Shown one piece after another: positions 1 to 60,540 of a DNA stretch of 64,000 nt; position 1 is the stretch's first letter, and each line of letters begins with the position of its first letter. Location of the stretch: NCBI GenBank assembly GCA_964635905.1, contig CAZWPK010000001.1, forward strand, positions 437,096 through 501,095. The letters run 5' to 3'. The notes beneath the pieces are model-generated. The model searched no databases, had not been told where the DNA came from, and saw only the letters and a program-made list of their open reading frames with translations. The position numbers were made by a program, and so were the translations under genes. Origin of the DNA: an uncultured Pseudomonadales bacterium. GTDB taxonomy: Bacteria; Patescibacteriota; Microgenomatia; UBA1400; UBA12028.

Positions 1-1296
1 GAAGCTCATACCCGGGTACGTGATTACCTCCTGACTGAGGACTCCCAATTTTCAGAATATGTTATTGATAGTTTTTTATATGGCTCGTACAAGAGGCATA
101 CTGCTGAAGGCAATATTAAAGATGTTGACATTGCTTTAGTAACTACCTTTGATCCAAATAGCGATGAAGATAAACCTAGTAAAGTCTTGCCAAAATTAAA
201 AAGAGCCCTAAATCGATTTTATGAAGATCCTAAAGCTACTACTCCTAACCGCAAGTCAGTTCAAGTAATAGACCCGCTGCCTGATGAACCTGATTCTGAG
301 CTAACCCTAGATATCATTCCAGTTGTTTTAACTGGAAATAGTGATCAAAAAGTTTTAGTACCTGACAGAGAAAATGATATTTGGGTTGAAAGCCATCCTA
401 AAGGTCATTTGAAGTTCACTTCAGACCTAAATAGTGATGAATTAAGTCAAGGTATGTTTGTACCTCTTGTTAAAATTATGAAACACTGGTGGAAGCAGCA
501 TTCAGGTGTTGAAGATGCTAAGCCAAAAGGGTTTTGGTTGGAAATACTTGTTGGAGAAACTTTTGATTCAACCAAGAACTCTTATGCTGAACACTTTGTC
601 CAAGTTTTGACCAATATTAAAAATAGATATATGGATTATGAAGATTCTTCTTCAGTACCAGAACTAAGAGATCCAGGCTTGCACGCTGAGACTCTTAAAA
701 CAAGTATGATACTGACTGAGTTTATCCACTTTATGGACGCAGTGAATGACACTTTATTAATAGCAACAGAAGCACTGGAGTCTACTGATGAATCTGAATC
801 TGCATATCTTTGGGGTAGTATTCTTGGTGACGAATTTCCCAAACCTGAAAGGAAAAGTTCTTTTGATTTATCAAAGCTAGTTGGTTTTGTAAATGCTTTT
901 TTTGCACCAAAAGAGCAATTCCTTCAAAGAGATTATGGATTCCCAATATTAGATCTAGGTTACTCACTAAGGATTGATGGTTGGGTAACTAAAAATAAAG
1001 GATTTAGAGATAACTATATAAGTCTATTACCTTTAGTTCAAAAAAAGGCTTCAATTCTCTTTAAAATTATAAAGTTTGATGTACCTGGTGAATTCAATGT
1101 AATGTGGAAAGTAAAAAATACAGGAAGAGAAGCAAGCCGATTAGGTACACAACGAGGAGAAATAACTTGGGATGAAGGCAATAAAGAAAAAGTAGAATCC
1201 ACACTATATACTGGTACCCATTTTGTTGAGTGCTATGTAATTGACTCAAGCAATAGATGTATCGCTTGGGATAGAATAAAAGTCAGAATAGTTTAA
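1..1296 (+). CDS. CD-NTase/SMODS-like (Pol-beta superfamily) nucleotidyltransferase, 5' end truncated by the window edge. The reading frame is open from position 1; the listed ORF start at 187 is only an internal Met.
   Basis: Translation from nt 1 gives ...SFLYGSYKRHTAEGNIKDVDIALV (a GS...DxD NTase motif). A third acidic residue appears in LTLDIIPV. The KIMKHWWKQH...KPKGFWLEILV motif is typical of CD-NTase/OAS-like enzymes. An unknown beta-rich C-terminal extension of about 140 aa follows. The gene is AT-rich (~37% GC). Confidence 0.55.
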   Translation, partial: EAHTRVRDYLLTEDSQFSEYVIDSFLYGSYKRHTAEGNIKDVDIALVTTFDPNSDEDKPSKVLPKLKRALNRFYEDPKATTPNRKSVQVIDPLPDEPDSELTLDIIPVVLTGNSDQKVLVPDRENDIWVESHPKGHLKFTSDLNSDELSQGMFVPLVKIMKHWWKQHSGVEDAKPKGFWLEILVGETFDSTKNSYAEHFVQVLTNIKNRYMDYEDSSSVPELRDPGLHAETLKTSMILTEFIHFMDAVNDTLLIATEALESTDESESAYLWGSILGDEFPKPERKSSFDLSKLVGFVNAFFAPKEQFLQRDYGFPILDLGYSLRIDGWVTKNKGFRDNYISLLPLVQKKASILFKIIKFDVPGEFNVMWKVKNTGREASRLGTQRGEITWDEGNKEKVESTLYTGTHFVECYVIDSSNRCIAWDRIKVRIV

Positions 1297-1347
1297 AGCC
1301 CTACAGTTAACTCAACTTTTCTATGTTGCTATATAATAGCTAGTAAC

Positions 1348-1665
1348 ATGAGCACAATTAAAAACCCTGTTTCTGACTTAACTAGTAGAGTAATTAATAA
1401 TCTCCCATGGTCAGAAGTAAGAGATTTACTAAGAAATAGCGATGACTTCAGAAACAAGATTGAAGAATTTGATGACACCTTATACCGCTTCGTAGCTGCA
1501 GACACTAATCAATCAGTTATCCTCAAATCAATTTTGAAACATCTCAAGGCCACTGATCCAGGCAACGCCACTCTAGAAAAAGCTACCAATATTACCAATG
1601 CTATGATGAATTTTGCTAAGTTGAGAGTCTCAGAGCTAGAAGCTCTTAGGAATAAGAAAAAGTAG
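1348..1665 (+). CDS. hypothetical protein (105 aa) immediately downstream of the NTase
   Basis: ORF on the same strand, 52 nt after the NTase stop. No recognisable motifs. Confidence 0.35.
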   Translation: MSTIKNPVSDLTSRVINNLPWSEVRDLLRNSDDFRNKIEEFDDTLYRFVAADTNQSVILKSILKHLKATDPGNATLEKATNITNAMMNFAKLRVSELEALRNKKK

Positions 1666-1719
1666 TCATGTCGAAGACACACTACAACTTAGCCTCGATT
1701 TACAGTACAGTAAACATAT

Positions 1720-1944
1720 ATGAGTAACGTCATAACCCAGGCCATCCGAGACAAAATGGCTGACAAAATCAAGCAACTGAGAGTAAAAAAGCAGATGACT
1801 CAAACCGAGACTGCTATTGAAGCTGATATTGACCCTAGTTACTACCCACGCATTGAGCGGGGAGAATCTAATATTACTCTTGAAACACTTTTTAAGTTAG
1901 TTAAAGCCCTCAAGGCAAAATCCTCAGATATCTTGCCTTTCTAA
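1720..1944 (+). CDS. XRE/Cro-C1 family helix-turn-helix transcriptional regulator (74 aa)
   Basis: The sequence QMTQTETAIEADIDPSYYPRIERGESNITLETLFKLVKAL matches the XRE HTH signature. Its 3' end overlaps the 3' end of the convergent PLD gene by 4 nt. Confidence 0.65.
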   Translation: MSNVITQAIRDKMADKIKQLRVKKQMTQTETAIEADIDPSYYPRIERGESNITLETLFKLVKALKAKSSDILPF

Positions 1945-2423
1945 ACTAGGTGTTTTTCCAAATCTAGAAAATCCATCATTTGTTGTACTGCTGCAGTTCC
2001 CTCTATCCGGCGCATAATTTCCCGACTTCTAGTTTGTGACAAGATATTGAGACTACCTTCCCAGAGAATGTTTCTGTCCAAAATTGCTAACTTGCGGTGA
2101 TCGTTGCCTTGGCAGAGGAGTGTATGGATTCCTACTTCTTCAAACTTCCTTATCATCGCCTCAGACTGCCTTCCAAGACGCGGTTCATGCTCACGAGGAT
2201 CACGAGTAAGGATGTAAATATTGACCTCCTTCTTCAGTAATGTATCAAAAACAGGTAAGTACAATCTCATTCGTCCTTGGGTAATAAACGGACTCTCAAT
2301 AATTACTTCTTCCTGACAACTTTCTAGATCAGCGACAAACTGATGATAAAAGGTTTTCTCATCAAAGAGGTGAGAATTTAGGATAGAATCAGAAGAGTGG
2401 GGTATGGAAACACTCGCTGGCAT
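1941..2423 (-). CDS. PLD-superfamily (single HKD motif) Nuc-like nuclease/phosphodiesterase, 160 aa
   Basis: HRKLAILDRNILWEGSLN fits the HxK(x4)D(x6)GSxN PLD motif. The size is comparable to Nuc-type dimeric nucleases. RBS-like GAGGAGAAATAATG sits upstream. Confidence 0.65.
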   Translation of the reverse strand: MPASVSIPHSSDSILNSHLFDEKTFYHQFVADLESCQEEVIIESPFITQGRMRLYLPVFDTLLKKEVNIYILTRDPREHEPRLGRQSEAMIRKFEEVGIHTLLCQGNDHRKLAILDRNILWEGSLNILSQTRSREIMRRIEGTAAVQQMMDFLDLEKHLV

Positions 2424-2510
2424 TATTTCTCCTCTTCTAACCCTTGGTATGAGGTCATGAACTTATGGAGATAGGCCAGTAGGTGTTCGGCGTAATTTGC
2501 ACTCCCCCCA

Positions 2511-3260
2511 GTGGTGACAGCCAGGCCAACTCCTACACCCACTGCAACGGCAACTCCGACACCTACTCCTGTACCTGTGGATGTGGCCATCACCGCGGTC
2601 TACTTATGGGACTACAATGCGATGTCCTCGATCTTAAACCCAACTGCTTCAAACACTTTATCTATTGATGAGAAGAACTGGACATCGATTCCCTCTCCGA
2701 TCTCCATGACCTTTGAACTTAAAACGATTGGAAACACTTTCCAAAAGAGTGTTCCATATAGAGTGACTGCAAATGGAACAGTGATTCAATCCGGATTGAT
2801 TGGTCTGGTAAACTCATCCGGAACAATATCGCCAACCTTTAGCTTACCTTCTGCGCCAGCATCATATACGGTCGCAATTGATATTAATCAACCGAGTGAG
2901 TATACAGAGGCAAATACAAGTAATAATTCCTATACTTTCCCCTATACGATTCGCGCGGACACGACCCCACCACAAATATCCTTTGATATCCTCAAGCGGG
3001 CAGATACCCAACAAACATGTGTGACTCCACGCTATGCAATCGATGTCTCAACAAGTGAAAATGACATCCGTTTTGAAGGAAAACTTGATGGTGAAAACTG
3101 GTATTCTTTCACGTATCGACCAGATCCGAGCAAAGAGCCACGTTACGAGCGATGCTTAACTGGACCTGCGGGTGAGTACCATACCTTCTCTGTGAAAGCT
3201 TGGGACAAACGTGGGAACCAAACGGAGGGTGTATACTCGTTTAGTCTCTATGCATTCTAA
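2511..3260 (+). CDS. hypothetical protein with an N-terminal Thr/Pro-rich low-complexity segment (GTG start in the ORF track; no signal peptide)
   Basis: ORF of 249 aa, TPTPTATATPTPTPVP followed by a beta-rich region. An in-frame stop at 2493-2495 rules out an upstream extension. The start codon is uncertain. Confidence 0.3.
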   Translation: MVTARPTPTPTATATPTPTPVPVDVAITAVYLWDYNAMSSILNPTASNTLSIDEKNWTSIPSPISMTFELKTIGNTFQKSVPYRVTANGTVIQSGLIGLVNSSGTISPTFSLPSAPASYTVAIDINQPSEYTEANTSNNSYTFPYTIRADTTPPQISFDILKRADTQQTCVTPRYAIDVSTSENDIRFEGKLDGENWYSFTYRPDPSKEPRYERCLTGPAGEYHTFSVKAWDKRGNQTEGVYSFSLYAF

Positions 3261-3345: not shown

Positions 3346-4422
3346 ATGTATCCTATGCCACTTGCATATCTTGCGTCAGTAGACGCACTTGAAACGTATT
3401 TACAATCAAAACATCTTTCTTGGGAGAAGTGTCAGTTGCCAGACAAGGAGCAGTGCCGATCGTTGTTTACACTGCGGATTCCTCTCTCCTATGCCAATCT
3501 CATTAATTGGAAAGATCCAGAAGATCCCTTACGCATGATGGTGATGCCAAGTTTACTGGAGAAAAATATTCAGAACTACGAATTGTCTGATCCGATTGGG
3601 GATTCCAGCCATGAGCCTGTTCCTGGACTCATCCATCGGTATCCGAATCGTTGCTTGCTTCTGTGTACGACGTATTGCGGGGTCCATTGCAGATTTTGTT
3701 TTCGTCGCGATGTCATCGGGAAACCTCGGCCGATTGATATTCATGCAGGCGAAGGTTATTTACGATCACATCCAGAAATTGCAGAAGTCATTTTTTCCGG
3801 AGGTGACCCACTTACCTTCCCGATTGCCTTTTTGCGGGGAATGCTGTCAATGCTGGATTCGATTGCTTCTGTGCGAGTAATTCGTTTTCATACGCGCCTA
3901 GCAGTCATGGATCCCAGTGTCTTATCGACAGAATGGATTTCCGCACTAGCTATCCTGACAGGAAAACGAATCGTAATCGTACTGCATTGTAATCATGCCC
4001 GAGAAATTAGTCCGCAACTGCGTGCATCGGTACAGCGTTTACAAGCTGTCGGGATTGTGGTGCTCTCTCAATCGGTACTCTTACAAGGGGTCAATGATTC
4101 AACTTCTGCTCTGCAAGAGTTATTCTGGAACTTGTTCATCGATGGGATTATCCCCTATTATCTGCATCATCTTGACTATGCAAAAGGGACGCATCATTTT
4201 CGAATTTCGGTATCAAAAGGAAAAGCACTCTATGCATCGCTACGTGGTCGACTTCCAGGGTACTGTATTCCGGAGTATGTCGTAGATCTTCCCGGTGGAG
4301 ATGGAAAATTCCCAGTGATGCAGTTACAAGAGTTACGGGATGGTCATTATCTAGCCTACAGTTGGGATCAGCGCGAAGTTGAGTATGTTGATCAGGCGGT
4401 ATTAACATCCGACCAGCAGTGA
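3346..4422 (+). CDS. epmB: EF-P beta-lysylation protein EpmB (KamA-family radical SAM lysine 2,3-aminomutase)
   Basis: CGVHCRFCFRR is the radical-SAM CxxxCxxC motif in a KamA-like context. Length is 358 aa. Confidence 0.8.
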   Translation: MYPMPLAYLASVDALETYLQSKHLSWEKCQLPDKEQCRSLFTLRIPLSYANLINWKDPEDPLRMMVMPSLLEKNIQNYELSDPIGDSSHEPVPGLIHRYPNRCLLLCTTYCGVHCRFCFRRDVIGKPRPIDIHAGEGYLRSHPEIAEVIFSGGDPLTFPIAFLRGMLSMLDSIASVRVIRFHTRLAVMDPSVLSTEWISALAILTGKRIVIVLHCNHAREISPQLRASVQRLQAVGIVVLSQSVLLQGVNDSTSALQELFWNLFIDGIIPYYLHHLDYAKGTHHFRISVSKGKALYASLRGRLPGYCIPEYVVDLPGGDGKFPVMQLQELRDGHYLAYSWDQREVEYVDQAVLTSDQQ

Positions 4423-5230: not shown

Positions 5231-5404
5231 GAATGGTTTTTTAATTTTCTACGATTAATTTCTTTGACCAGTCGCACGTCAAAATGCGTCAATATCGGAT
5301 TTAGCAAACTAACCAGAATGTTCCATCAATTAAATTATTCATGGCACCTTTCTGTTACAGCGGTATCACGGTATAGTTTTGGTTGAAGTATAATAGAGAT
5401 CTCT

Positions 5405-6469
5405 ATGAATTCAACCTGGAAGAGATTACGAGCCCAGCCCGACAAACTAACTTACTTGTATCAACGGGAGAAGATTGTTGATGCGATTCGACACTTTTTT
5501 AAGTCACAGGAGTTTTTAGAAGTAGACACACCTTTATTAGTTAAATCTCCTGGAACAGAGCCATATTTGGAAGTGTTTGCGACAACTCTGCTAGACTTTG
5601 AGCGTCATCCAACTCCTGCATATTTGCTCACTTCGCCAGAGTATGCATTAAAAAAATTGCTAGTTACTGGGATTCCAAAACTGTTTTCCATTTGTAAATC
5701 TTTTCGTAATGCAGAAGGTCTGTCCTTTAAACATAACCCTGAGTTTACCATCATGGAGTGGTATCGAACGCATGCAGACTACACTGACATTATGAAAGAC
5801 TGTGAACAGCTATTTGTTGCCATTGCACGAACCTTGGATACGACGCAGATTGGACCTACCACGTCCTGGACTTATCAAGGGAAAATGTATGATTTGACTC
5901 CCCCGTGGGAAAGAATTAGTGTTGCAGAGGCTTTTTTTAGCTACTGTGGGATTGATGTGGACACATTACTTGATGAGCGAAAGCTAAAGGAAGCAGGAAA
6001 AAAGCGCGGATTTTCCGTTGAATCCACTACAACTTGGGAACAGGTATACAACCAATTTTTACTCAACGATATCGAGCCGCATTTTGGAGTAGACCATCCG
6101 ACCATCATTTATGATTTCCCTGTTTCTCAAGCGTCGCTTGCTAAAAAAAAGGACTCTGATCCACGTTTTGCGGAGCGTTTCGAATTCTATGTGGCAGGAA
6201 TTGAGATGGGAAATGCGTTTTCAGAATTAACGGACGCCGAAGAGCAGCGATCCCGCTTTGAATCCGAACTTAACGAACGAGCCATCTTGGGCAAAACAGC
6301 ATATCAACTAGACGAAGATTACTTGGAAGCAATAAAAGCAGGTCTGCCACCCACCGGCGGGATAGCTGTTGGAATTGATCGTATCGTTATGTTTTTTGCG
6401 GATGCGCCGCAAATTTCAGATGTTGTTGTCTTTCCAGCGTCGGAATTATGGAACAAGCATTCTGATTAA
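5405..6469 (+). CDS. epmA: EF-P-lysine lysyltransferase EpmA (PoxA/GenX; LysRS catalytic-domain paralog)
   Basis: Class II aaRS core without an anticodon-binding domain. NPEFTIMEWY and GIAVGIDRIVMF match EpmA/LysRS motifs. A TATAAT box lies 10-11 nt before the ATG. Confidence 0.85.
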   Translation: MNSTWKRLRAQPDKLTYLYQREKIVDAIRHFFKSQEFLEVDTPLLVKSPGTEPYLEVFATTLLDFERHPTPAYLLTSPEYALKKLLVTGIPKLFSICKSFRNAEGLSFKHNPEFTIMEWYRTHADYTDIMKDCEQLFVAIARTLDTTQIGPTTSWTYQGKMYDLTPPWERISVAEAFFSYCGIDVDTLLDERKLKEAGKKRGFSVESTTTWEQVYNQFLLNDIEPHFGVDHPTIIYDFPVSQASLAKKKDSDPRFAERFEFYVAGIEMGNAFSELTDAEEQRSRFESELNERAILGKTAYQLDEDYLEAIKAGLPPTGGIAVGIDRIVMFFADAPQISDVVVFPASELWNKHSD

Positions 6470-6732
6470 CGCCGTGCAGCTTCAATGGATCCTGCACCAA
6501 GACCAAGTGGGATTGCTCCAAGCATGGAAAGCGTGGCAGCGACAATTAGGACATCGCAGCGTGGGTCGGTCAGTAGCTCCGGGCGTGACAATATTTCTTG
6601 GAAGGCTCCTGTCCGGATCAAGTTGTACAACGAAGGAAGACCGATGCCTTCTACAAATGTTCCCAATGCCATTGTGGAAACACCAACTGTGTAGCTTAAA
6701 GCCTTATCTGCATTTTTAAGATGATCTGTCAC
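6466..6732 (-). CDS. small hydrophobic protein (88 aa), possibly membrane
   Basis: ORF with Gly/Ala/Leu-rich hydrophobic segments. Overlaps the epmA stop. Confidence 0.25.
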   Translation of the reverse strand: MTDHLKNADKALSYTVGVSTMALGTFVEGIGLPSLYNLIRTGAFQEILSRPELLTDPRCDVLIVAATLSMLGAIPLGLGAGSIEAARR

Positions 6733-6821
6733 AGTTCATTATTATAGGTCTTGAATAAGTTGGAGTCAATAGCGATAGTCTTGTTCTGTGGTTTAATCGA
6801 AGAAAGCTCTATAATACAGGG

Positions 6822-7523
6822 ATGTGGAATACGCGAAGAGAGACAGTACAACCGTCAATCAGGCCTGAATGGGCAGAGTGGAAATCAAATCCACGACCTG
6901 CTGACTATTGTGATGGTATGCGCAATGCCAACACAAACCTGCTAGCTGATAGTGGATTTACACCTACATTACTGACAGTTTCATCCATGTTCTTGGAAGA
7001 CAGTCGGAACAAAGACACCTTTCTAGTCTCTCAGCTTCCGGGAATTATATGGGACGATCTTACTGTCCCGTTTTCAACTGATTTGGATATTGCGATTCAG
7101 GTTGTAGAGCAGTTTGCAGAACTTGAGCAGCGAAAATTATGCCTCTGGGATCGCCATGGAGGCAATATTTTAGTTGACCCTGAAGAGCAGAATAGAGTGT
7201 GGCAAGTTGATTTAGAAACAATCTTTGACACCTCTGTAGAGCGCTTTATGCATCAAAGTTTGCCGATGACGCACCAGGAAAGATTTCACCTACATGCCGC
7301 AAAACTAGAAACATTTGCGCTGGTTCACCCCATCAATCTTCAACTTCAAATGGTTCTGTTAACCTTGATGACAAAAAACTCGCTGGCTTACCCAGTCATG
7401 AGCAGCGAATGGAGGCGGGTGAACACGGAAATTCGGGCAGTGCTTGAACTGACGAAAGTTCTACGAGAATCAAAATTGTCATTGGTTCTAGATTCTATGC
7501 GAAATCTTCAGCAACGACTCTAA
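6822..7523 (+). CDS. protein-kinase-like-fold protein (RIO/Kdo/APH-like catalytic-loop motif)
   Basis: LWDRHGGNILVD ... VWQVDLE resembles the HxDxxxxN catalytic loop plus a downstream Asp-Leu-Glu metal-binding motif (DFG-like position) of the kinase-like fold. 233 aa. Confidence 0.4.
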   Translation: MWNTRRETVQPSIRPEWAEWKSNPRPADYCDGMRNANTNLLADSGFTPTLLTVSSMFLEDSRNKDTFLVSQLPGIIWDDLTVPFSTDLDIAIQVVEQFAELEQRKLCLWDRHGGNILVDPEEQNRVWQVDLETIFDTSVERFMHQSLPMTHQERFHLHAAKLETFALVHPINLQLQMVLLTLMTKNSLAYPVMSSEWRRVNTEIRAVLELTKVLRESKLSLVLDSMRNLQQRL

Positions 7524-7610
7524 TACCATGCGTCCATGTGACAAGGTAGCTCAAACATCGTATAATAAGGCCTTCCTCAAGGAAATTGGTAGCAGCTAGT
7601 AAGGAATTGT

Positions 7611-8174
7611 ATGGCATTAACTGGTGGAAATATTAAAAAAGGCATGTACATCATGCATAAAAATGAACCGCACTGGGTGACGTTTACCGAGTTTGTGTCC
7701 CCAGGTAAAGGGTCCGCATTCATGCGTTCGAAACTCAAGAGTGTAAAGACAGGGAACGTGGTTGAATTTACCTTCAAATCCGTAGAAACGGTCGAAGAAG
7801 CCGATGTCCAGACTACCGAAATGCAATATTTGTATCAAGATGGTCAAGACTTTATTTTCATGCATCCACGCACGTTTGAACAAGTTACAGTTCCTGGTGA
7901 TGTGATGGCAGACTATGTGCCCTATTTGATGCCGGAACAATACATGTATGTGGTTTTTTACAATGAAAAAGCCATTGGCATACGTTTCCCAGGGAAGGTC
8001 ACACTGACAGTTGACTACTCCGAGGATGCGGTTGCAGGAAATCGTGTCAACGCTCCTAAAAAGAAAGTACGATTAGAAACGGGCTATGAGATCGATGTGC
8101 CTCTCTTTATCAAAAAAGGTGATCGTATCGTTGTGGATACCACTACTGGACAATACGTGTCTCGGGGTGAATAG
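7611..8174 (+). CDS. efp: elongation factor P
   Basis: 187 aa. A conserved PGKG loop (SPGKGSAFMRSK) carries the modifiable Lys. A TATAAT-like box lies upstream at ~7560. Confidence 0.9.
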   Translation: MALTGGNIKKGMYIMHKNEPHWVTFTEFVSPGKGSAFMRSKLKSVKTGNVVEFTFKSVETVEEADVQTTEMQYLYQDGQDFIFMHPRTFEQVTVPGDVMADYVPYLMPEQYMYVVFYNEKAIGIRFPGKVTLTVDYSEDAVAGNRVNAPKKKVRLETGYEIDVPLFIKKGDRIVVDTTTGQYVSRGE

Positions 8175-8215
8175 CAGTTCCTACAGTAATTAATCGCAAC
8201 ATTTGGTACTATAAA

Positions 8216-10852
8216 GTGGTGAAATTTTTGCATCGTTTACTTCATCGTCAAAAAAAGAGACTCTCTTCTTTTTCCAGGTCTGGATTTCGAACTGCGACAC
8301 ATGGGGATTTAAAAGGGTTAAAGATTGTCCGGATTATTTCCATGCTGTTTTTAGGCGGGGTGGTTACTGGTATGATTGGTTTCCTAATTGTGGCTACGAT
8401 CCTTTCCTTTACTCTTCCTAATCCGCAAAATGTGATTCGGAATGAGGGCTTTAGTACGAAGATCTTGGATCGAGAGGGCAACCTTCTCTACGACGTGTTT
8501 GATAATGAACGCATTGTTCCCGTGGTAAAAGACGAGGTTCCCCTCTATTTAAAGCAAGCAACAGTTGCAGTAGAAGACAAGGATTTCTATAAGCATGCAG
8601 GGTTTGATCCGTTGACTCCGTTACGCATGATTCAGAACCTGATTTTCAAACATCGTTTGATTGGTGGATCTACCTTAACCCAACAATTGACTAAAAACAG
8701 ATTGCTGGATAGTAGTCGCACTCCAACGCGTAAGTTTAAGGAGCTTTTACTCTCGATGCAGATTGAGCAAGCTTTCTCCAAAGATGACATTTTACTCCTC
8801 TATCTCAATGAAACGCCGTACGGTGGAAACTCCCGCGGAGTGGGTGCTGCCGCAGAACAATACTTTGGCAAGAAAGTCTCGGATCTCACCTTAGTGGAAT
8901 CCGCGATCCTAGCTGGTTTGCCACAACGACCGTCCGTCTATTCGCCACTGTTTGGACAGAAAGATGAAAATGGAGTGGGATACTGGGTTGGACGTACCTA
9001 TGCAGTCCTTCGTCGCATGCGGGAGGATGGATATATTACTGAGGATCAAGAGAAATTTGCGCTTGATGAATTAAAACTAAAGACATTTGATCGACCAGCG
9101 GTGGAGATTAAGGCCCCGCACTTTGTCTTTTATGTTCGTGATTTGTTAGAGGAAGAGTACGGGAATCAAGTGCTAGAAACTGGTGGATTGAAAGTAACGA
9201 CCACACTTGATCTGCGTCTGCAACAGGAGGCTCAAAAAATTGTCCGTGAAGAGATCGCAAAAGTGGAGAAACTGCATATTACCAACGGATCTGCGATGGT
9301 CATGGATCCAAAGTCTGGAGAAATCCTCTCGATGGTGGGGAGTAAAGACTTTTTCTCCAAAGATATTGATGGTCAATTCAATGTTGCGGTGAACGGGCTT
9401 CGGCAACCCGGATCCTCCATCAAGCCAGTAACCTATCTGTTAGCGCTCCGACGTGGGTATACACCAGCATCGCTGATCGCCGATGTTCCTACAACTTTCC
9501 CTGGAGGAACCGGACAGAAAGATTACGAACCTAAAAACTATAATGGGAAATACCCTGGTCCGATTCAACTGCGATTTGCGTTAGGAAATTCACAAAACAT
9601 TTCTGCGGTCAAACTTCTTGCAAAAGTCGGAGTTATGGATATGTTGGGTCTTGCTTATGAAATGGGATTTAAGACCTTGGAGCCCACCGCTGCAAATCAA
9701 CGACGATTTGGACTAGCCATTACTTTAGGAGGTGGAGAAGTACATTTGATCGATTCGGTATCTTCCTACTCGTCGTTTGCCAATGGCGGGAAAAAGATTG
9801 ACCCTGTTGCGATTCTCAAGATTGAAGATCGCAGTGGCAAGGTTTTATATGAGCATAAGCCAACGAACGGCAAGCATGTCATGTCTCCTGAGGAATCCTT
9901 TTTAATTAGTCACATCCTTTCCGACAATAATGCGCGTTCTGGAGCATTTGGAGCGAATTCACAACTTAATTTTGGTGAACGTGCAATTGCGGTCAAAACC
10001 GGTACCACGAACAACTTAGTCGATAACTGGACAATTGGTTGGTCGCGCAATGCAATCGTGGGAGTCTGGGTGGGAAACAACGATAACACGTCCATGAAGT
10101 CTGTGGCATCTGGACTCACTGGTGCTTCGCCAATCTGGCGACGCATCATGTTGGATGCCATTTCCAAAGGATACAAGGATCAAGCTTGGGAAATCCCTTC
10201 TGGGGTAGAAGCAGTCCAGGTCGATGCCGTGTCCGGATATCCAGAACACGATGGATTCCAAGCGCGTACCGAGTATGTCCTGAAAGGGACATTGCCTGCA
10301 CTCCCCGATCCCATCCACACCAAACTCAAACTCTGTAGAGGACAAAACAAACTGGCATCCGAAGCGGATCTTGCCGGTGGAAACTATGATGAGAAAGAGT
10401 TCATCGTTTTGCGCGAAGATGATCCCGTAAGTACTGATGGGAAGAATCGTTGGCAAGATGGAATCAATGCCTGGATCGGTGCCCAGGGAGATACGCGCTA
10501 CATGGTGCCAACGGAAAACTGTGATAGTACCAACGCTGTCTGGGTAGCGTTTGAACCTAACCTAGACAAGAAAAACATTACGGGTAATGAGGTGGAAATG
10601 AAACTAAAAACCGCCAGCGATGGCGAGATGGATCGAGTGGAAATCTATATCAATGATGCCCTAAAAACAACGTTACGTGATCGCCCGTATGAAACAAAGC
10701 TCGTCTTGGATCCTGGGAAATATAAAGTCTACGCAAAAGCCTATCGCAAAGATGGGAAAACCGGAACCACCACCGATCAATTCATCGGAGTTGGCGGAGT
10801 AGCTTGGGATCAGTCGCCGTCTCCCACTCCAAGTCCGAGTGCAACTCCATAA
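8216..10852 (+). CDS. class A penicillin-binding protein (bifunctional GT51 transglycosylase / transpeptidase, PBP1A-like)
   Basis: N-terminal TM helix. GT51 motif VAVEDKDFYKHAGFDP. Transpeptidase motifs SSIKP (SxxK), SQN and KTGTT. Ser/Pro/Thr-rich C-terminal tail. Confidence 0.9.
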   Translation: MVKFLHRLLHRQKKRLSSFSRSGFRTATHGDLKGLKIVRIISMLFLGGVVTGMIGFLIVATILSFTLPNPQNVIRNEGFSTKILDREGNLLYDVFDNERIVPVVKDEVPLYLKQATVAVEDKDFYKHAGFDPLTPLRMIQNLIFKHRLIGGSTLTQQLTKNRLLDSSRTPTRKFKELLLSMQIEQAFSKDDILLLYLNETPYGGNSRGVGAAAEQYFGKKVSDLTLVESAILAGLPQRPSVYSPLFGQKDENGVGYWVGRTYAVLRRMREDGYITEDQEKFALDELKLKTFDRPAVEIKAPHFVFYVRDLLEEEYGNQVLETGGLKVTTTLDLRLQQEAQKIVREEIAKVEKLHITNGSAMVMDPKSGEILSMVGSKDFFSKDIDGQFNVAVNGLRQPGSSIKPVTYLLALRRGYTPASLIADVPTTFPGGTGQKDYEPKNYNGKYPGPIQLRFALGNSQNISAVKLLAKVGVMDMLGLAYEMGFKTLEPTAANQRRFGLAITLGGGEVHLIDSVSSYSSFANGGKKIDPVAILKIEDRSGKVLYEHKPTNGKHVMSPEESFLISHILSDNNARSGAFGANSQLNFGERAIAVKTGTTNNLVDNWTIGWSRNAIVGVWVGNNDNTSMKSVASGLTGASPIWRRIMLDAISKGYKDQAWEIPSGVEAVQVDAVSGYPEHDGFQARTEYVLKGTLPALPDPIHTKLKLCRGQNKLASEADLAGGNYDEKEFIVLREDDPVSTDGKNRWQDGINAWIGAQGDTRYMVPTENCDSTNAVWVAFEPNLDKKNITGNEVEMKLKTASDGEMDRVEIYINDALKTTLRDRPYETKLVLDPGKYKVYAKAYRKDGKTGTTTDQFIGVGGVAWDQSPSPTPSPSATP

Positions 10853-55022: not shown

Positions 55023-55094
55023 GGGCCCGTAGCTCAGTGGTAGAGCAGGAGCCTTTTAAGCTCTGTGTCGTGAGTTCGATCCTCACCGGGCTCA
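55023..55094 (+). tRNA. tRNA-Lys (anticodon TTT)
   Basis: GGGCCCGTAGCTCAGTGGTAGAGCAGGAGCCTTTTAAGCTCTGTGTCGTGAGTTCGATCCTCACCGGGCTCA forms a cloverleaf with anticodon loop CTTTTAA. No CCA encoded. Confidence 0.85.
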
Positions 55095-55132
55095 CAGACA
55101 TACTATGTATAGTGTGAGAGAATTTCTAGGTT

Positions 55133-55205
55133 GGCCCCATCGTCTAGAGGCCTAGGACACCTGGTTTTCATCCAGGCAACCCGAGTTCGAATCTCGGTGG
55201 GGTCA
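55133..55205 (+). tRNA. tRNA-Glu (anticodon TTC)
   Basis: GGCCCCATCGTCTAGAGGCCTAGGACACCTGGTTTTCATCCAGGCAACCCGAGTTCGAATCTCGGTGGGGTCA with anticodon loop TTTTCAT. Canonical T-loop TTCGAAT. Confidence 0.85.
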
Positions 55206-55382
55206 CAAATATCGTAAGGTTCAGCGCGACCCGTTCGCCTGCGCAAAAAAGCCCGATAAGGCTTGCTAATTTTTGACCGAATTGTTCGAAATCGAGTTTT
55301 AGATCCTGTAATAGGTGAATTTACCCCAATGGGACACTCCCTTTTAAAACCACGAGAAGAACACCTACCCCTGTAGATGTCG

Positions 55383-56735
55383 CTATTTCTGAATAACTAT
55401 CGTTTTATTTGTCAGAATAAACTTCGTTTTGATGAAAGTGAGTGCTTCTTGTCTCTCTTCGGCCGTACCAATCTGAAGGATGTGAAGTAGATAGTTTTTG
55501 GTCATCTCGTTCTTGTCAGCAGAGGTTTTGGGGATTCTTTCAAATTCACCCAAATGGCCATCAATATATTCCTGATGTAAAACTTGTGACTTTAGTCGGT
55601 GATATCTCTCGATATCTTCTTGGATTTTTCGAGATACTCCGGCGTTGTTAAATTTGATTTTGTCAATGTTGGCGATTAGTTGTTTAACCAGATCTGTTTC
55701 GGTAATGTATGGTTCATCGCATTCATAATTTAATGATCTACCACAGTGATAGTAAGTGTGTTTGGTATATCCACCATGTTTTAGTTTCCTAATTTTTTCT
55801 TCGGCTGTGACACCTCCTCCACACCCACCACAACGGAAGATGCTTTTGAATGGGAATATTTTGTTTTTGTAGCCTTTGGGAACTGTTTGTAAAATTGACT
55901 GGACTTTATCGAAGAGATCCTTGGTAATGAGTGGGGTATGTTTCCCCTGATACCAAGTACCACTTCCGACTGGGAATTCAAACTCTCCAAAGTAGAAGGG
56001 GTTATTGAGCGTGGAATACACCTTACTTAACGGCATTGGTTTGTCGTTTCTAGTTTTGAAGCCGATTCGATCTAGGCAGTGTTTTATGGCTCTACCGCTA
56101 TGACCTTGATTTGCCACTCTTTCAAACATTTGAGTGACAAATGAAGCTCGATCGGGGTCTAGGATGATTAGTTCATCCTTATGACCATCACCCGCTTGAT
56201 TTAAATATCCTACAGGAGCGATGCTTGGCCTCCATCCCATTGAGCATTTCGTCCGTAAACCTCGCTGGACATTAAGTCCTTTGTTATCGTTCTCTAGCTT
56301 TGCCTGCGAGCAAAGAATCATGAGTAGGAACTTCTCGTTTGGGCTATTTGTAAAACTTTGAGAGTAAGTTTGTATCTTTATCAACTTACCTTGATCCATG
56401 AGATCAACTACTGATCCTAAGTCACCGGCATTGCGACTCAAACGATCGGGAGCCCAAGTTAAGATTCCATTAAATTTCTTTTGACGTATTTCTTGAAGAA
56501 GTTGAGTAAATACTGGCCGAGACCCAGACATTTTTGCTGAATGACTTTCCTTTTTAACTTCTTTTATCTTGAGATTGTCACGCTTCGCCAATGTAAGCAT
56601 TTCGTCAATCTGTGAATCAATCGACATTGCTTGCCGTTCATCAGATTCGGATGACTTACGGGCATAGAGACAATATTCTATTTTTGGTGGTTCTATCGGC
56701 TGATTTTGATTGTATGTTCCCATTTCAGGGTACAA
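55383..56735 (-). CDS. large serine recombinase / serine integrase
   Basis: N-terminal resolvase catalytic region LYARKSSESDERQAMSIDSQ. Recombinase domain and zinc ribbon (CGGCGG...YYHCGR). Coiled-coil C-terminus. 450 aa. Confidence 0.85.
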   Translation of the reverse strand: MYPEMGTYNQNQPIEPPKIEYCLYARKSSESDERQAMSIDSQIDEMLTLAKRDNLKIKEVKKESHSAKMSGSRPVFTQLLQEIRQKKFNGILTWAPDRLSRNAGDLGSVVDLMDQGKLIKIQTYSQSFTNSPNEKFLLMILCSQAKLENDNKGLNVQRGLRTKCSMGWRPSIAPVGYLNQAGDGHKDELIILDPDRASFVTQMFERVANQGHSGRAIKHCLDRIGFKTRNDKPMPLSKVYSTLNNPFYFGEFEFPVGSGTWYQGKHTPLITKDLFDKVQSILQTVPKGYKNKIFPFKSIFRCGGCGGGVTAEEKIRKLKHGGYTKHTYYHCGRSLNYECDEPYITETDLVKQLIANIDKIKFNNAGVSRKIQEDIERYHRLKSQVLHQEYIDGHLGEFERIPKTSADKNEMTKNYLLHILQIGTAEERQEALTFIKTKFILTNKTIVIQK

Positions 56736-56824
56736 GGTACCGCTGGGTCTCGAGGAAGTCTAGTCGGAGAATAAATTACTGCTTTTTGTTGTTCTATCCT
56801 AGAATTTCCAATACAATTTAAGCT

Positions 56825-57607
56825 ATGATTATAGTTAAGGTATTAATTGCCTTGCTTTTGTTTATGACCAACTTTAACCAAGTACGTGCATCGGAGAGTT
56901 CAGGAAAAAGAATATTGTTTATACACCACTCTACTGGTGGAAATTTAATTAAAGAAGGCAATTTAAGAGCAGAAATTAAAAAGCTAGATCCAAATATCCA
57001 GTTTTGGGATCACAATTACAATCTTTTTCCAGTTTTTACTTCGTTACTAGCTAAATTTACTCATTTAAAAGGGTTGTCCAACGCCGAAGGTCAAATTACA
57101 GGTAAAGATTACAATATTGTTCTGAGCAACAATAGTCCAAAAGAATATGCCGAGATTTTTTCCAGAGGTCCCAATGATCCAACTCTAAAAGCCATACTGA
57201 GTTATGACGTAATCGCTTTCAAAAATTGCTACCCAACAACACGAATTACCTCAGATCAACAACTCGAAGATGACAAGAAATATTATCTGGTTATTAGGGA
57301 TAATCTTAAAAAATATCCAGAAAAACAATTTATTCTATTAACACCACCTCCAGCTAGAATAGAAACAACGAATATTGACAATGCTGACCGAGCCAAAGAG
57401 TTAGTCAAATGGCTAAATTCGGAGGAGTTTATAAAAGGAACTAAAAATATACATATTTTTGATTTTTACGATCTACTTGCCGATGAGCAGGGAATGTTGA
57501 AGAAAGATTATCAAAGACTTTTACCCTGGGATTCTCATCCCAACTTAAAAGCTAATTTGACCGCTGCCCCTATTTTCGCAGAATATTTAGTGAAGTTATC
57601 AAAATAG
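56825..57607 (+). CDS. secreted protein, possibly an SGNH/GDSL-like hydrolase (very AT-rich gene)
   Basis: Signal peptide MIIVKVLIALLLFMTNFNQVRA. Blocks LFIHHSTGGN and WDSHPN loosely resemble SGNH blocks I and V. Confidence 0.3.
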   Translation: MIIVKVLIALLLFMTNFNQVRASESSGKRILFIHHSTGGNLIKEGNLRAEIKKLDPNIQFWDHNYNLFPVFTSLLAKFTHLKGLSNAEGQITGKDYNIVLSNNSPKEYAEIFSRGPNDPTLKAILSYDVIAFKNCYPTTRITSDQQLEDDKKYYLVIRDNLKKYPEKQFILLTPPPARIETTNIDNADRAKELVKWLNSEEFIKGTKNIHIFDFYDLLADEQGMLKKDYQRLLPWDSHPNLKANLTAAPIFAEYLVKLSK

Positions 57608-57610
57608 TTA

Positions 57611-58597
57611 CTATATCCTGATTTGTTTTTCCAGCCAAGGGATATTTTCGTTTTGTCTTTTCCACCACAAATCTTCCCAGATATAGTGCACAGCAAGTTG
57701 TTTATATTCTCCAAATCTTTCAAAGTGTTTAAGAATTTTGTCTACTGGCACAGGGTTTTCTGGGTCAACATCGAAAAATACTTTGGAGTAGATTTTTTGT
57801 TCCCAAGGGGAAACGTGATTAAAGAAATCCCAATGGTGAAATACATCAAAAAGCAAATACCAGACTGTTGCTGGCCCAACACCATAAAGTTTTAGCAATT
57901 CGTTCATCTGAGTTTCCCTGTCCTTTTTTCTTAGCTCCATTTCATCCATTAAACCTTGAGTAAAATACTCATCGATTTTCTTTATAGATTTGGCTCTATA
58001 CCCAAGTTTTAATGCTCTCAATTCGTCCTCGGTTATATTTTGCAATCTACCAGGCTTGAAGAAACACCAAAGTTTTTTACCATCAAATTCTAGTTCAGTT
58101 CCATAATTTTCAAGGAGAGCCTTGAACATTTGTACACTTCTTCTGACAGTTGCATTTTGTAGGACAATTCCAATGAGTAGATATTCATATAAAGAGCTCG
58201 GGTGACCTGGTTTCATTCCTTGCCACTTTTTTATGATAGGCCCAAGGACTTTGTCATTTCCAAATTCTTTATAAAACGATGCCAAATCTAATTCTAGGTT
58301 GTATCTGTATCTGATTTCATCGATCAAACTATCAACAAATTCTTTATCAAGTTTTTCCTCTGAATAAATACCTATTTCAATACTTGGATTTAGTGTAGAT
58401 CCAGTATTTTTAAATCGAATACCTAAACACTTTTCTTTCCATGTCCAAGTTTGCCAGCGTGTTCCAACTTCCCATAGATTATCGCCAGATGTAAAGTGAT
58501 CTGGTTTATGAAAAGTAGCATCAAAATTAAATGGTGCTAGTGGCGACAATTCTTTGACAACTTTATAGCTTAGTTTCATGACTTTGAGATCTCCCAT
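57611..58597 (-). CDS. HhH-GPD superfamily DNA glycosylase (AlkA-like)
   Basis: Helix-hairpin-helix LLKLYGVGPATVWYLLFDVF followed by a conserved Asp region. 328 aa. Confidence 0.55.
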   Translation of the reverse strand: MGDLKVMKLSYKVVKELSPLAPFNFDATFHKPDHFTSGDNLWEVGTRWQTWTWKEKCLGIRFKNTGSTLNPSIEIGIYSEEKLDKEFVDSLIDEIRYRYNLELDLASFYKEFGNDKVLGPIIKKWQGMKPGHPSSLYEYLLIGIVLQNATVRRSVQMFKALLENYGTELEFDGKKLWCFFKPGRLQNITEDELRALKLGYRAKSIKKIDEYFTQGLMDEMELRKKDRETQMNELLKLYGVGPATVWYLLFDVFHHWDFFNHVSPWEQKIYSKVFFDVDPENPVPVDKILKHFERFGEYKQLAVHYIWEDLWWKRQNENIPWLEKQIRI

Positions 58598-58944
58598 ATA
58601 TTACCATCTGGGTCCTTAAAGTATGCCACAGTTTGCCCCCATTCAGTTGTTTTGGGACCTTCAAAGACTTCAACATTCTTGGCCTTTAACGCTTCACATG
58701 TTTTGTCTACATCAGAGACTTGAAATCCATATACCGCACCACCTGCCTTTCCCATATTCTTTGCTGGAAACATTGCAATTGCTGTTTTTCTACTGAATAT
58801 AGCTAAAGAAGTCCCTTCTAATTTGAAATCAGCGAATTCACCATCGGTAGAGTTTACTTCCAAACCAACGACATCCCTGTAAAAAGTTAGGGAACGCTCG
58901 AAATCAGCTACTAATAAGCAAACTGCAAATAGTTTATTGAACAT
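58576..58944 (-). CDS. VOC family protein (glyoxalase/bleomycin-resistance fold)
   Basis: VADFERSLTFYRDVVGLEV...DPDGNIWEI is typical of VOC. Confidence 0.6.
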   Translation of the reverse strand: MFNKLFAVCLLVADFERSLTFYRDVVGLEVNSTDGEFADFKLEGTSLAIFSRKTAIAMFPAKNMGKAGGAVYGFQVSDVDKTCEALKAKNVEVFEGPKTTEWGQTVAYFKDPDGNIWEISKS

Positions 58945-59053
58945 ATTAAATTCACCTCCTTTCAGTATTTACAGGAAGGTTACCAGTTAAGTCTAGTATT
59001 CTCTAGGGTAGTTAACTACACCAAGAATCAACTATAATTACGGTAGCTTTTAT

Positions 59054-59728
59054 ATGCACGAAACACAAAAAATACTACTGAAACGATTGCTTACACAGAA
59101 TGGGCAAAGATACTCCAGTCTCACAGTCGGCTACGATTTTGACGACAATGTCGTATTTCACCTTAAACAGTTAATTAATAAAGGTCTGATGAAGAAAGAG
59201 GCTGATAAATATCTAATAACTCTTGAGGGAATTAAAGTCATCACAGATTACGACTTACTAACCATCGAGGATACTGGATATAAAACGTTTTTTGTCGGAT
59301 TTTTATGTAACTTTGGAGATAAGTACTTAATAAAAGAACATCCCACTGAAACAACCAATTTTTATAATCTACCAAGCGGTAAACCAAGATTTGGAGAATC
59401 GATCGATATTGCTTTAATTCGTACCTTTGAGTCCAACACTGGTATCACTCTTAACAAAAAAGATTTTAAGTTTCGGTCGTTACACTTGAAGACTGTCAAA
59501 ACTTCATTAGGAGAAACATTATTTGATGATGCATTCACAATTTATACAGTGGAAATCAATCAAAAACAAAAAGAGAGAATGAAATTACACAAACAAATTA
59601 GTTGGAAGTCGATTGGTGAGATTCAAAAATTATCAAATCGCTGGCCAGAAATAGATATTTGTATTTTGAAAAATGACTCAAGTCCTTATCTTAGTTATGA
59701 ACTAAAGTCAGACTATATATTGAGCTAA
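59054..59728 (+). CDS. winged-helix plus Nudix-like domain protein
   Basis: N-terminal wHTH-like region. Partial Nudix box SGKPRFGESIDIALIRTFESNTGI. Confidence 0.4.
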   Translation: MHETQKILLKRLLTQNGQRYSSLTVGYDFDDNVVFHLKQLINKGLMKKEADKYLITLEGIKVITDYDLLTIEDTGYKTFFVGFLCNFGDKYLIKEHPTETTNFYNLPSGKPRFGESIDIALIRTFESNTGITLNKKDFKFRSLHLKTVKTSLGETLFDDAFTIYTVEINQKQKERMKLHKQISWKSIGEIQKLSNRWPEIDICILKNDSSPYLSYELKSDYILS

Positions 59729-59733
59729 CTGTT

Positions 59734-60204
59734 TTAAACTCCAGCTCTTTTGTCAACTAAACCACCCATATAGTTTGCTTTGTAGATTATTTTGTCGCCT
59801 TGAGTTATTTGTTCCTCTCCAGAATATCGCTCAACATCACCAGTCCAACTGTTGTGATAAGTAAATTCACCATCGACAAATTCTTTAGGTCCACGGAAAG
59901 GCGCATCTTCAGGCATCTGCTTTAGAGCACCCCTAAGAATTGCGTAAACCGGATCTGTAGCTACTCCCTCTGCGACCCAGCCATAATAAACCATCATCCA
60001 AACCGGCTTGTCCTGATAAAAAGCGACAAGTCTACCGCCATATGGTTCGCCACCGAAGAAATTATCGTGAGATTTCCATTCACCTTTAGTATAAGGAATT
60101 GTTGTTGATCCATCTGATTCTTTTATCCATTTCTTTTCTTCACCACCAGCATAACCAGCGTTGTTTGAATCGAGTAGAAAATTTACAAGAGCTTGTTTAT
60201 TCAT
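59734..60204 (-). CDS. conserved hypothetical protein (156 aa); paralog of 11188-11664
   Basis: High similarity to the core-genome copy. ATGA overlap with the upstream gene. Confidence 0.5.
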   Translation of the reverse strand: MNKQALVNFLLDSNNAGYAGGEEKKWIKESDGSTTIPYTKGEWKSHDNFFGGEPYGGRLVAFYQDKPVWMMVYYGWVAEGVATDPVYAILRGALKQMPEDAPFRGPKEFVDGEFTYHNSWTGDVERYSGEEQITQGDKIIYKANYMGGLVDKRAGV

Positions 60205-60527
60205 AGTTCATCCTCCGATAGTAATGGGTATATATCAAAAGCGACTTCTTCATAGGGATGAACTTTGCGCATTGCAGAAATTACGTCTTTTGCTTTATCT
60301 CTGTCACAGACGCACTCGACACGTTCTTCTTGCACCTCTTCAGGTTTGCCAACCTCACCAATGGTTGGATTAGCACCTTCAAGAGGAAGAAATCATCCAA
60401 TATCATCTATTGAATAACTGCAGTGACTGTAATTCCCGATCTTTCCCGCACCAGCACCACCCATCGCTTTACGAACGATGTCTGTGTGAGACTTTGGTAC
60501 GAACACAACTATTTTAACTTGCGACAT
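60201..60527 (-). pseudogene. conserved small protein (~107 aa, IGNYSHCSYS...PLEGANPTIGEVG...HPYEEVAFDIYPL family) interrupted by an in-frame TGA at 60393-60395
   Basis: Minus-strand translation reads MSQVKIVVFVPKSHTDIVRKAMGGAGAGKIGNYSHCSYSIDDIG*FLPLEGANPTIGEVGKPEEVQEERVECVCDRDKAKDVISAMRKVHPYEEVAFDIYPLLSEDEL. Both halves are in the same frame. Coupling to flanking genes is preserved. Confidence 0.5.
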
Positions 60528-60540
60528 ATTATTTTTATGA

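Follow-up and report, generated by a model that had tools for sequence, protein, structure and literature searches.

The left end of the 64,000-nucleotide stretch of contig CAZWPK010000001.1 studied here (hereafter the window) raises the question of whether a nucleotide-signalling enzyme and the phospholipase D (PLD)-like nuclease encoded next to it form a single defence system. [quoted passage not shown] It is followed on the same strand by the gene of a 105-aa protein (ORF105) and by an XRE-family helix-turn-helix (HTH) gene, on which the PLD gene converges from the opposite strand. A sequence-only reading of these genes regarded the neighbourhood of CD-NTase and PLD nuclease as a non-standard arrangement, either a variant signalling or abortive-infection system or two adjacent defence genes. 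Contextual analysis of the upstream sequence and of related loci very probably separates them into two units that are independent of each other and owe their proximity to the landing site of mobile cargo: a type I CBASS cassette and a trio of ORF105, XRE and PLD genes that belongs to a conserved backbone.

The CD-NTase gene occupies window 1..1296 on the + strand, is open from nt 1 with its stop codon at 1294-1296, and represents the 3′ 95% of a gene coding for 456 aa. Its product displays the motif YGSYKRHTAEGNIKDVDIAL, which combines the GS and DxD signatures (YGSYKR...KDVDIAL), a third aspartate in LTLDIIP, and KHWWKQ...KPKGFWLEILVGE, in agreement with the GS...DVD, third Asp and KxWWK...GFWLEIL motifs read earlier. 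Across 25 homologues (alignment A2) the residues G53, S54, D66, D68, D129, W188, W189 and P200-W204 are invariant. The Pfam SMODS profile matches the partial protein with an E-value of 6e-14 and the full-length protein with 1.7e-21, the PADLOC 'Cyclase' models reach 3e-60 and up to 3.3e-68 respectively, and the top NCBIfam matches are CBASS cyclase models, below their trusted cut-offs. PDB sequence searches with the catalytic core (window 1-912) return clade C/D cyclases only (BcCdnD, EcCdnD, AbCdnD, SeCdnD, PaCdnD and EcCdnC); the closest solved structure is that of Bacillus cereus CdnD (BcCdnD; 9sa4, 3.9e-46), with the EcCdnD/AbCdnD/SeCdnD group at ~1e-27, and these searches find no antibiotic nucleotidyltransferase or AbiEii protein among the solved relatives. 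The C-terminal extension of ~140 aa, which the sequence-only reading had left unassigned, is an AGS-C domain (window 913..1290, +; Pfam PF18134 AGS_C, 1.6e-29, residues 305-430 of the partial protein against profile positions 4-128 of 129). A survey of type I CBASS describes AGS-C as an immunoglobulin (Ig)-like domain of unknown function, fused to the cyclase in ~40% of type I systems, confined to this type and not seen as a fusion among the clade D enzymes of its data set (10.1101/2023.05.21.541620). By these sequence features the protein is a genuine CBASS cyclase of SMODS plus AGS-C architecture, with predicted activity, as had been proposed for its catalytic part. Its product is most likely a cyclic oligonucleotide; a trinucleotide such as cA3 or cAAG is the best guess because the nearest solved enzyme, BcCdnD, makes 3′3′3′-cA3, which activates the Cap4 nuclease (PMC13424991). 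The family is absent from IMG/VR, which was searched.

The sequence 5′ of the window was obtained from Logan contig SRR8893623_448631 (locus L001, 10.3 kb), which matches the small ORF and the PLD protein exactly; the two sequences agree without a difference over 5,936 nt, and L001 reaches 4,336 nt farther 5′. This extension encodes a VirB4/TraG-like ATPase, then an M23 peptidase, followed by a LexA-like (S24) repressor (L001 2256-2873), a protein of 458 aa in which a restriction-endonuclease-like domain at the N-terminus is joined to a SAVED domain at the C-terminus (L001 2875-4251), and the full CD-NTase gene (L001 4262-5632), the first 25 codons of which lie upstream of the window. A single nucleotide separates the lexA-like stop from the SAVED gene, and 10 nt separate the end of the latter from the CD-NTase start. 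The SAVED protein is recognized by the Pfam SAVED profile (6.6e-10), by PADLOC SAVED5 (9.3e-15) and by the SAVED3--SAVED_PDDEXK and 'Effector Endonuclease' models (~2e-7), while its N-terminus matches Mrr_cat (Pfam, 0.0022) and the LmuA nuclease-type model (PADLOC, 6e-10) and retains an E...GxD...Q(C/S)K motif that is kept in 14 of 15 homologues. These features suggest an N-terminal PD-(D/E)xK nuclease fused to a SAVED sensor, a Cap4-like effector with nuclease activity predicted from its domains. The remaining neighbours within 10.3 kb are the TraG-like ATPase, the M23 peptidase, the LexA-like protein, ORF105, XRE and PLD, and none of them is a Cap2/Cap3, HORMA/TRIP13 or other signature accessory gene; the system is therefore assigned to type I. 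Thus, with high confidence, the lexA-like, effector and CD-NTase genes make up an ordinary type I CBASS cassette, whose effector lies just upstream of the window. The defence context proposed earlier is borne out by this extension, in which the SAVED effector, the LexA-like repressor and genes related to a type IV secretion system (T4SS) stand where an ordinary metabolic operon might have been found. It also illustrates how the edge of a sequence window can hide the true effector of a cyclase.

The independence of this cassette from the trio is apparent from the contexts in which each occurs. Relatives of the cyclase are encoded in a sample of 55 metagenomic loci. Of the 38 with enough sequence 5′ of the cyclase gene, 30 have a SAVED gene immediately before it, and a PLD or ORF105 homologue follows it in none of the 26 loci with at least 1.2 kb downstream. 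Four contigs (L086, L087, L088 and L131) share ~80% DNA identity with L001 only over L001 2221 to ~5300-5625, a span that takes in the lexA-like, SAVED and cyclase genes, and their flanking genes are unrelated; the point at which the homology to these cassette copies stops, L001 5298-5625, corresponds to window 962-1289. The reciprocal case is provided by L142, which is 91% identical to L001 over L001 1-2191 (the ATPase and M23 genes) and 90% identical over 5717-6845, a block that begins 33 nt into ORF105 and ends a short way upstream of the PLD gene, and carries a 617-aa OLD/AriA/GajA-like ATPase in place of the CBASS cassette. As this backbone homology resumes at L001 5717 (window 1381), the swap bounds the cassette at approximately L001 2192-5716 (window -2145 to 1380), places the right junction between CBASS cargo and conserved backbone, where homology breaks, at window 1297..1380, and assigns ORF105, XRE and the PLD gene to the backbone. 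The three-gene AT-rich cassette thus recurs as one block in unrelated contexts, and the reduced genomes of Microgenomates-like candidate phyla hold complete CBASS cassettes that move as units.

Base composition follows the same division. The low GC content noted earlier relative to the neighbouring core is confirmed, with values of 0.33-0.39 across window 1-1750 that climb to ~0.45 past 2500, compared with a mean of 0.434 (sd 0.033) for the whole window. Gene by gene it rises from the CD-NTase (0.350) through ORF105 (0.365), the HTH gene (0.404) and the PLD gene (0.414) to the next two genes (0.456-0.459). The outlier is the pair of SAVED (0.339) and CD-NTase genes and not the HTH/PLD pair; the flanks lie at 0.42-0.46.

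The PLD gene (window 1941..2423, -) encodes a bare catalytic domain of 160 aa with one HKD motif (HRKLAILDRNILWEGSLN; PLDc_2, 6.1e-9), devoid of any nucleotide-sensor domain. Its homologues, which here come from metagenomic sequence and metagenome-assembled genomes only, fall into more than 4,364 clusters at ~60% identity to the query, and all that carry names are Patescibacteria; the family is absent from IMG/VR and PLSDB, both of which were searched. In 27 aligned members, 46 positions are invariant, including HRKLAxxD and LWEGSLNI, so that the signature HxK(x)4D...GSxN (HRKLAILD...GSLN) is strictly retained, and inspection of the same members reveals no signal peptide, transmembrane segment or hydrophobic N-terminal segment. 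An AlphaFold2 model (predicted local distance difference test score, pLDDT, 89) gives as top Foldseek matches NucT (6ehi, 4.4e-9), Zucchini (4ggj, 4.8e-8) and Nuc (1byr, 1.7e-7), with TM-scores of 0.62-0.67 at 14-20% identity. By this model the protein has a Nuc-type nuclease fold, as the sequence-only reading had anticipated. A cardiolipin synthase or phospholipid PLD was considered and discarded, as there is one HKD motif in 160 aa, and lipid PLDs are only partial-length structural matches ranked below the nucleases. Since the protein is a single HKD domain with the fold of Nuc, NucT and Zucchini, homodimer catalysis would be expected; by analogy, it is most likely a dimeric nuclease that needs no metal and is controlled by XRE. 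On its domain content and gene context it is not the CBASS effector. With its very large size, high conservation and fixed XRE partner, the family probably constitutes an uncharacterised family of nucleases.

Gene neighborhoods of the PLD family were surveyed with one genome per species, which gave 448 loci, 80 of which were examined; counts of XRE and small genes below are for 76 loci and those of T4SS genes for 51. In 68 loci the PLD gene faces a convergent XRE homologue, and 56 contain a small gene of the ORF105 family, either of the type found in the window (sA) or of the related type sB. The two types share a common core, L..LK..DPE.AT.E.A, and are mostly encoded between PLD and XRE on the PLD strand, or sometimes beyond XRE, as is ORF105 itself (window 1348..1665, +). 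ORF105 is predicted to be a small helical protein that travels with the PLD/XRE pair; it has no match in Pfam, NCBIfam or PADLOC and no recognisable fold, a SeqA_N match at 0.051 having been dismissed. The XRE protein (window 1720..1944, +; ~74 aa; HTH_3, 2.2e-12), whose gene shares a 4-nt 3′ overlap with the PLD gene at 1941-1944, finds its best PADLOC match in the 'Control_protein' of restriction-modification (R-M) systems (7.9e-13), followed by capH (2.4e-8). The order, strands and 4-nt overlap of these three genes agree with those read earlier. Three further assignments were rejected. The XRE protein is not regarded as CapH, since no metallopeptidase (CapP) gene is adjacent and the only peptidase, M23, belongs to the T4SS-like cluster. 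An R-M pair of C-protein and endonuclease is excluded by the convergent orientation and the absence of a conserved methyltransferase. The small protein is not an obligatory antitoxin of the PLD protein, because about a quarter of the loci lack it. Two copies of the PLD/XRE pair occur in some genomes (JBAZXP010000001.1, CAWBPM010000002.1 and assembly CAVRKE01), and L023 contains two pairs within ~4 kb (6001-10348), which suggests duplication or independent acquisition of the module. The window itself contains a second XRE-type HTH coding region, at 62415-62603, which is ~30% identical to the HTH at 1720-1944.

M23 or TraG genes lie within 6 kb of the PLD gene in 32 of the 51 loci, and a canonical layout can be recognized: in the orientation of the T4SS it consists of a TrbC pilin, a TraC-like protein, the VirB4/TraG-like ATPase, M23, a variable slot and XRE, toward which the small gene and the PLD gene are transcribed from the other strand. 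The slot, i.e. the gap between M23 and XRE, spans 27 to 5,275 nt, and in eight loci XRE directly follows M23 on the same strand. Its contents include type I CBASS in the window locus, the OLD/AriA/GajA-like ATPase in L142, PDC-M48B in L141 and, in L003, an R-M system with C-protein, endonuclease and two methylases; IetA, CBASS with a 2TM effector, and TRIP13 matches are found elsewhere. Type III CBASS operons occupy the slot in L079 (7085-10842), L056 (6954-11066) and L070 (1125-5242), comprising a CD-NTase, HORMA (L079), a TRIP13-like AAA protein and a DUF6602 (L079) or CARF-like effector. In most cases the trio stands last in a T4SS-like cluster; it is a backbone conserved in Microgenomates/Patescibacteria and not a part of CBASS. 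Defence cargo gathers in the space that separates it from the M23 gene, a hot spot that makes the presence of CBASS near the PLD gene a consequence of its position, each CBASS bringing its own effector. A slot delimited in this way between a T4SS-like cluster and the PLD/XRE module offers a handle for finding defence genes in uncultured lineages.

At the far side of the trio, the homology between L001, L142 and L141 ends at an identical base (window 2509), beyond which the three are unrelated. The break terminates the region upstream of the PLD gene (window 2424..2509) and is immediately preceded by the motif GGCGTAATTTGCACTCCCCCC (window 2489-2509; L001 6825-6845; L142 ~8227-8247; L141 ~3571-3591). 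This motif has no second copy in the window or in the fetched loci, and is found only at this junction and in close relatives. A homology stop at the same base hints that the PLD gene terminates a mobile block, and the break may be where such a T4SS-to-PLD block ends, or else the border of a second variable region.

The gene heading the cassette encodes a full-length canonical LexA (LexA_DNA_bind, 3.8e-10; Peptidase_S24, 2.3e-27). The equivalents of Ser119, Lys156 and Gly85 (E. coli numbering) are invariant in the set of LexA-like proteins, and the P1 residue is Ala or Cys, the latter in the copy of the window locus; the protein is accordingly predicted from its Ser-Lys dyad and (A/C)-G site to be of the self-cleaving type. 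Twenty related type I loci reach far enough upstream for a count; 10 of them have a LexA-like gene as neighbour, and in four lineages this gene abuts or overlaps the effector gene. It also heads the type III CBASS of L079, is divergent from CBASS in L056 and L070, and in L141 a copy with 91% DNA identity to that of the window locus precedes PDC-M48B. The copies of the window locus and L003 are merely 29% identical, compared with 52-75% for the neighbouring genes. A candidate operator is provided by a perfect 6+1+6 palindrome, ACACATAATGTGT, at L001 2242-2254 (window -2095 to -2083), 1 nt before the annotated lexA-like start and ~13 nt before the probable one (MNSLTPKD). The same palindrome is kept in L086, L087, L088 and L131, in which the sequence farther upstream diverges. 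Palindromes are found within ~45 nt of the lexA-like start codon, with shuffle fractions of 0.011-0.04 in three lineages. In the literature searched we found no paper linking LexA/S24 proteins to CBASS, and we give about even chances to the proposal that self-cleaving repressors of the LexA family are a further and unreported kind of switch, portable and responsive to DNA damage, for type I and type III CBASS as well as other immune operons. Their presence on different immune operons suggests an SOS-type self-cleavage switch that is used alongside CapH/CapP, CapW and CapK/CapS.

These features are consistent with the following course of events at the cassette. The LexA-like protein would repress the CBASS operon from the palindrome before its own gene, and RecA-ssDNA formed upon DNA damage or phage replication would trigger its self-cleavage and lift the repression. 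Infection would then activate the CD-NTase, perhaps via AGS-C, to produce a cyclic oligonucleotide, most likely a trinucleotide (cA3 or cAAG), whose binding by the SAVED domain would switch on the fused nuclease. Degradation of DNA by the latter would abort the infection, and the cassette would thereby act against phage.

The main rival of this interpretation is that the CD-NTase and the PLD nuclease act together in a single variant system of signalling or abortive infection, to which the PLD protein would contribute the effector or a co-effector, ORF105 an accessory and XRE the regulator. The four genes are indeed contiguous within 2.4 kb, the same trio is found 3′ of a 62%-identical cyclase in L003, and PLD domains occur in known defence proteins, two of which are matched by the present one in PADLOC (MkoC, 1.1e-10; DrmC, 1.1e-4). 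However, the cyclase has a SAVED-nuclease effector of its own, the PLD protein lacks a sensor for the nucleotide, its gene is missing from all 26 related cyclase loci with sufficient downstream sequence, L005 has a 68%-identical cyclase and no PLD, and the trio of L142 (90% identity) sits beside cargo other than CBASS. In L003 the trio stands beside the cyclase because the T4SS backbone is syntenic (TraG 75% and M23 63% identical), and most sampled PLD loci have the trio without any CBASS. We regard a joint system as highly improbable. Had the CD-NTase been paired with the PLD nuclease, the architecture would have been new to CBASS; this is not the case, and a false lead is spared. The earlier alternative of two adjacent defence genes came closer, as the units are separate and CBASS is the defence system among them, but for the PLD trio a defensive role is only a candidate. 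It is likewise unlikely that the LexA-like gene is a housekeeping SOS repressor brought next to CBASS by chance. In favor of this are its canonical full length with the dyad intact, the absence of a second lexA from the 64-kb window and the presence of a related LexA beside housekeeping genes in L081. The gene nevertheless forms a single block of homology with the SAVED and cyclase genes that moves into unrelated contexts, and it is replaced together with them in L142, a mobility at the level of the cassette that argues against a housekeeping LexA, as do its contact or overlap with the effector gene, its recurrence next to type I and type III CBASS and PDC-M48B, and the divergence of the window-locus and L003 copies relative to their neighbours. 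Several points do weigh against the separation into a Cap4-like type I cassette and a backbone trio. The DUF4297 profile, which describes the Cap4 nuclease domain, is not among the Pfam matches of the effector at E<=0.1, for which reason the protein is named 'Cap4-like' and not Cap4; its similarity to solved Cap4 is marginal in sequence (E 0.007), and its putative nuclease domain is assigned from weak profile matches together with motifs. The CD-NTase is termed clade-D-like from PDB rankings. The palindrome of the window lineage is not significant taken alone (shuffle fraction 0.18), and the LexA-like gene could encode a housekeeping LexA, the single one in the organism. Finally, the proximity is recurrent, as CBASS of several types, each with its own effector, lie near the trio in ~6 of ~30 T4SS-linked slots.

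With the trio set apart from the CBASS cassette, its own role may be accounted for in two ways, which we weigh about equally. It is possible, but can only be proposed tentatively, that the trio is an autonomous and undescribed system of defence or of action against mobile genetic elements, in which a Nuc-like nuclease is held in check by the XRE repressor with the small protein as a modulator, so that two adjacent defence systems would be present. Its location at a hot spot with CBASS, R-M, OLD-like, IetA and PDC-M48B cargo, the match of XRE to R-M controller proteins, the nuclease-type fold, and the doubling of the pair in several genomes, in L023 within 4 kb, as is often seen in selfish or defence modules, are all compatible with this. 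Against it, the PADLOC system models match nothing more than the PLD domain, no methylase or other component distinguishing self from non-self is consistently adjacent, and the small protein is dispensable in about a quarter of loci; the PLD protein is also unusually conserved, with ~60% identity and its 46 invariant residues across several named groups of Patescibacteria, which is atypical of arms-race genes, and its family is missing from IMG/VR and PLSDB. The other possibility, to which we attach a similarly modest likelihood, is that the trio forms part of a T4SS-like apparatus or element, in which the PLD protein, akin to NucT and Nuc, would be a nuclease for DNA processing or for salvage and XRE the terminal regulator; a mobile T4SS element may have its end here. 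The linkage to M23/TraG in 32 of 51 loci, the eight cases of XRE directly after M23, the stop of three-contig homology at one nucleotide just past the PLD promoter region, and the high conservation of the PLD protein, which fits a housekeeping-like role, favor this connection, as do the best structural matches, NucT and Nuc. NucT aids T4SS-dependent natural transformation and purine salvage in Helicobacter pylori, and nuc is located in the tra region of pKM101. It is opposed by the lack of a visible signal peptide or transmembrane segment at the N-termini of the PLD family, in contrast to the exported Nuc and NucT, by the 19 of 51 loci without a T4SS gene in the 6-kb flank, by L141, which has the trio without T4SS genes nearby, and by the absence of a relaxase or integrase from the fetched flanks. 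In the literature searched no paper was found that links PLD proteins of Patescibacteria to T4SS. A bolder synthesis, which we consider rather doubtful, is that the trio works autonomously as a nuclease system specific to Patescibacteria, serving genuinely in defence or exclusion with no more than a Nuc-like PLD dimer at its base, and that it marks the end of a T4SS-type element and anchors the hot spot for defence cargo.

Scans for other signals yielded little: an Rfam search of window 1-2500 returned no match, promoter-like sites in a promoter/terminator scan of L001 2100-7000 were fewer than in shuffled sequences, and a generic inverted-repeat scan gave no convincing repeat around the XRE or PLD genes. 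Directly beyond the PLD gene, window 2511-3260 contains an ORF for a Pro/Thr-rich CARDB-like surface protein, followed by core genes for an EpmB-like radical-SAM aminomutase and an EpmA/GenX-like class II aminoacyl-tRNA synthetase paralogue (window 3346-4422 and 5405-6469), the pair for lysylation of elongation factor P. Farther away, the genes for tRNA-Lys and tRNA-Glu (window 55023-55206) are followed by that of a large serine recombinase (55383-56735, -) and, in the region up to 61500, by a stretch of low GC (0.35-0.38) with HhH-GPD, glyoxalase/Ble-like, DUF5680 and SDR genes; window 55023-61500 looks like an element integrated beside tRNA genes.

Among known systems, the cassette most closely resembles type I CBASS with CD-NTase-AGS-C fusions (Millman 2020 classification; 10.1101/2023.05.21.541620), with which it shares the core of a cyclase and a single effector and the C-terminal AGS-C domain. 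It differs from these in having the effector gene in front of the cyclase gene, a LexA-like gene at the head of the operon, and as its host a member of the Patescibacteria (Microgenomates-like) and not a proteobacterium; in addition, the catalytic core resembles, by PDB rankings, clade D, for which the survey reported no AGS-C fusion in its data set. The CdnD-Cap4 systems (Enterobacter cloacae CdnD/Cap4; B. cereus BcCdnD/Cap4, PMC13424991) provide the nearest solved cyclases and likewise have a SAVED sensor fused to a DNA endonuclease. Unlike the present cassette they are of type II, with Cap2/Cap3 and without AGS-C, and the predicted nuclease domain here is Mrr- or LmuA-like, with no match to DUF4297. 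As regards regulation, CapH/CapP, CapW (a BrxR-like WYL protein) and CapK/CapS similarly place a repressor gene directly in front of CBASS and further immune operons or in divergent orientation to them, and are portable among cargo. The repressor here is a single LexA/S24 polypeptide and not an HTH protein with a metallopeptidase, a WYL protein, or a kinase with a repressor.

For the trio, the closest parallels to the PLD protein are Nuc (pKM101, 1byr), NucT (H. pylori, 6ehi) and Zucchini/PLD6 (4ggj), which are single domains of ~150 aa with one HKD motif and the same predicted fold. These reference proteins are exported or membrane-anchored, whereas the present family, at 14-20% identity, has no export signal seen by inspection and is accompanied by a fixed convergent XRE gene and a small helical protein. 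The XRE protein in turn is comparable to the controller (C) proteins of R-M systems in its size of ~74 aa, its Control_protein match and the neighbouring nuclease gene. However, C genes precede the endonuclease gene and are co-transcribed with it, whereas in the trio the two genes converge with a 4-nt overlap, in a module without a methyltransferase.

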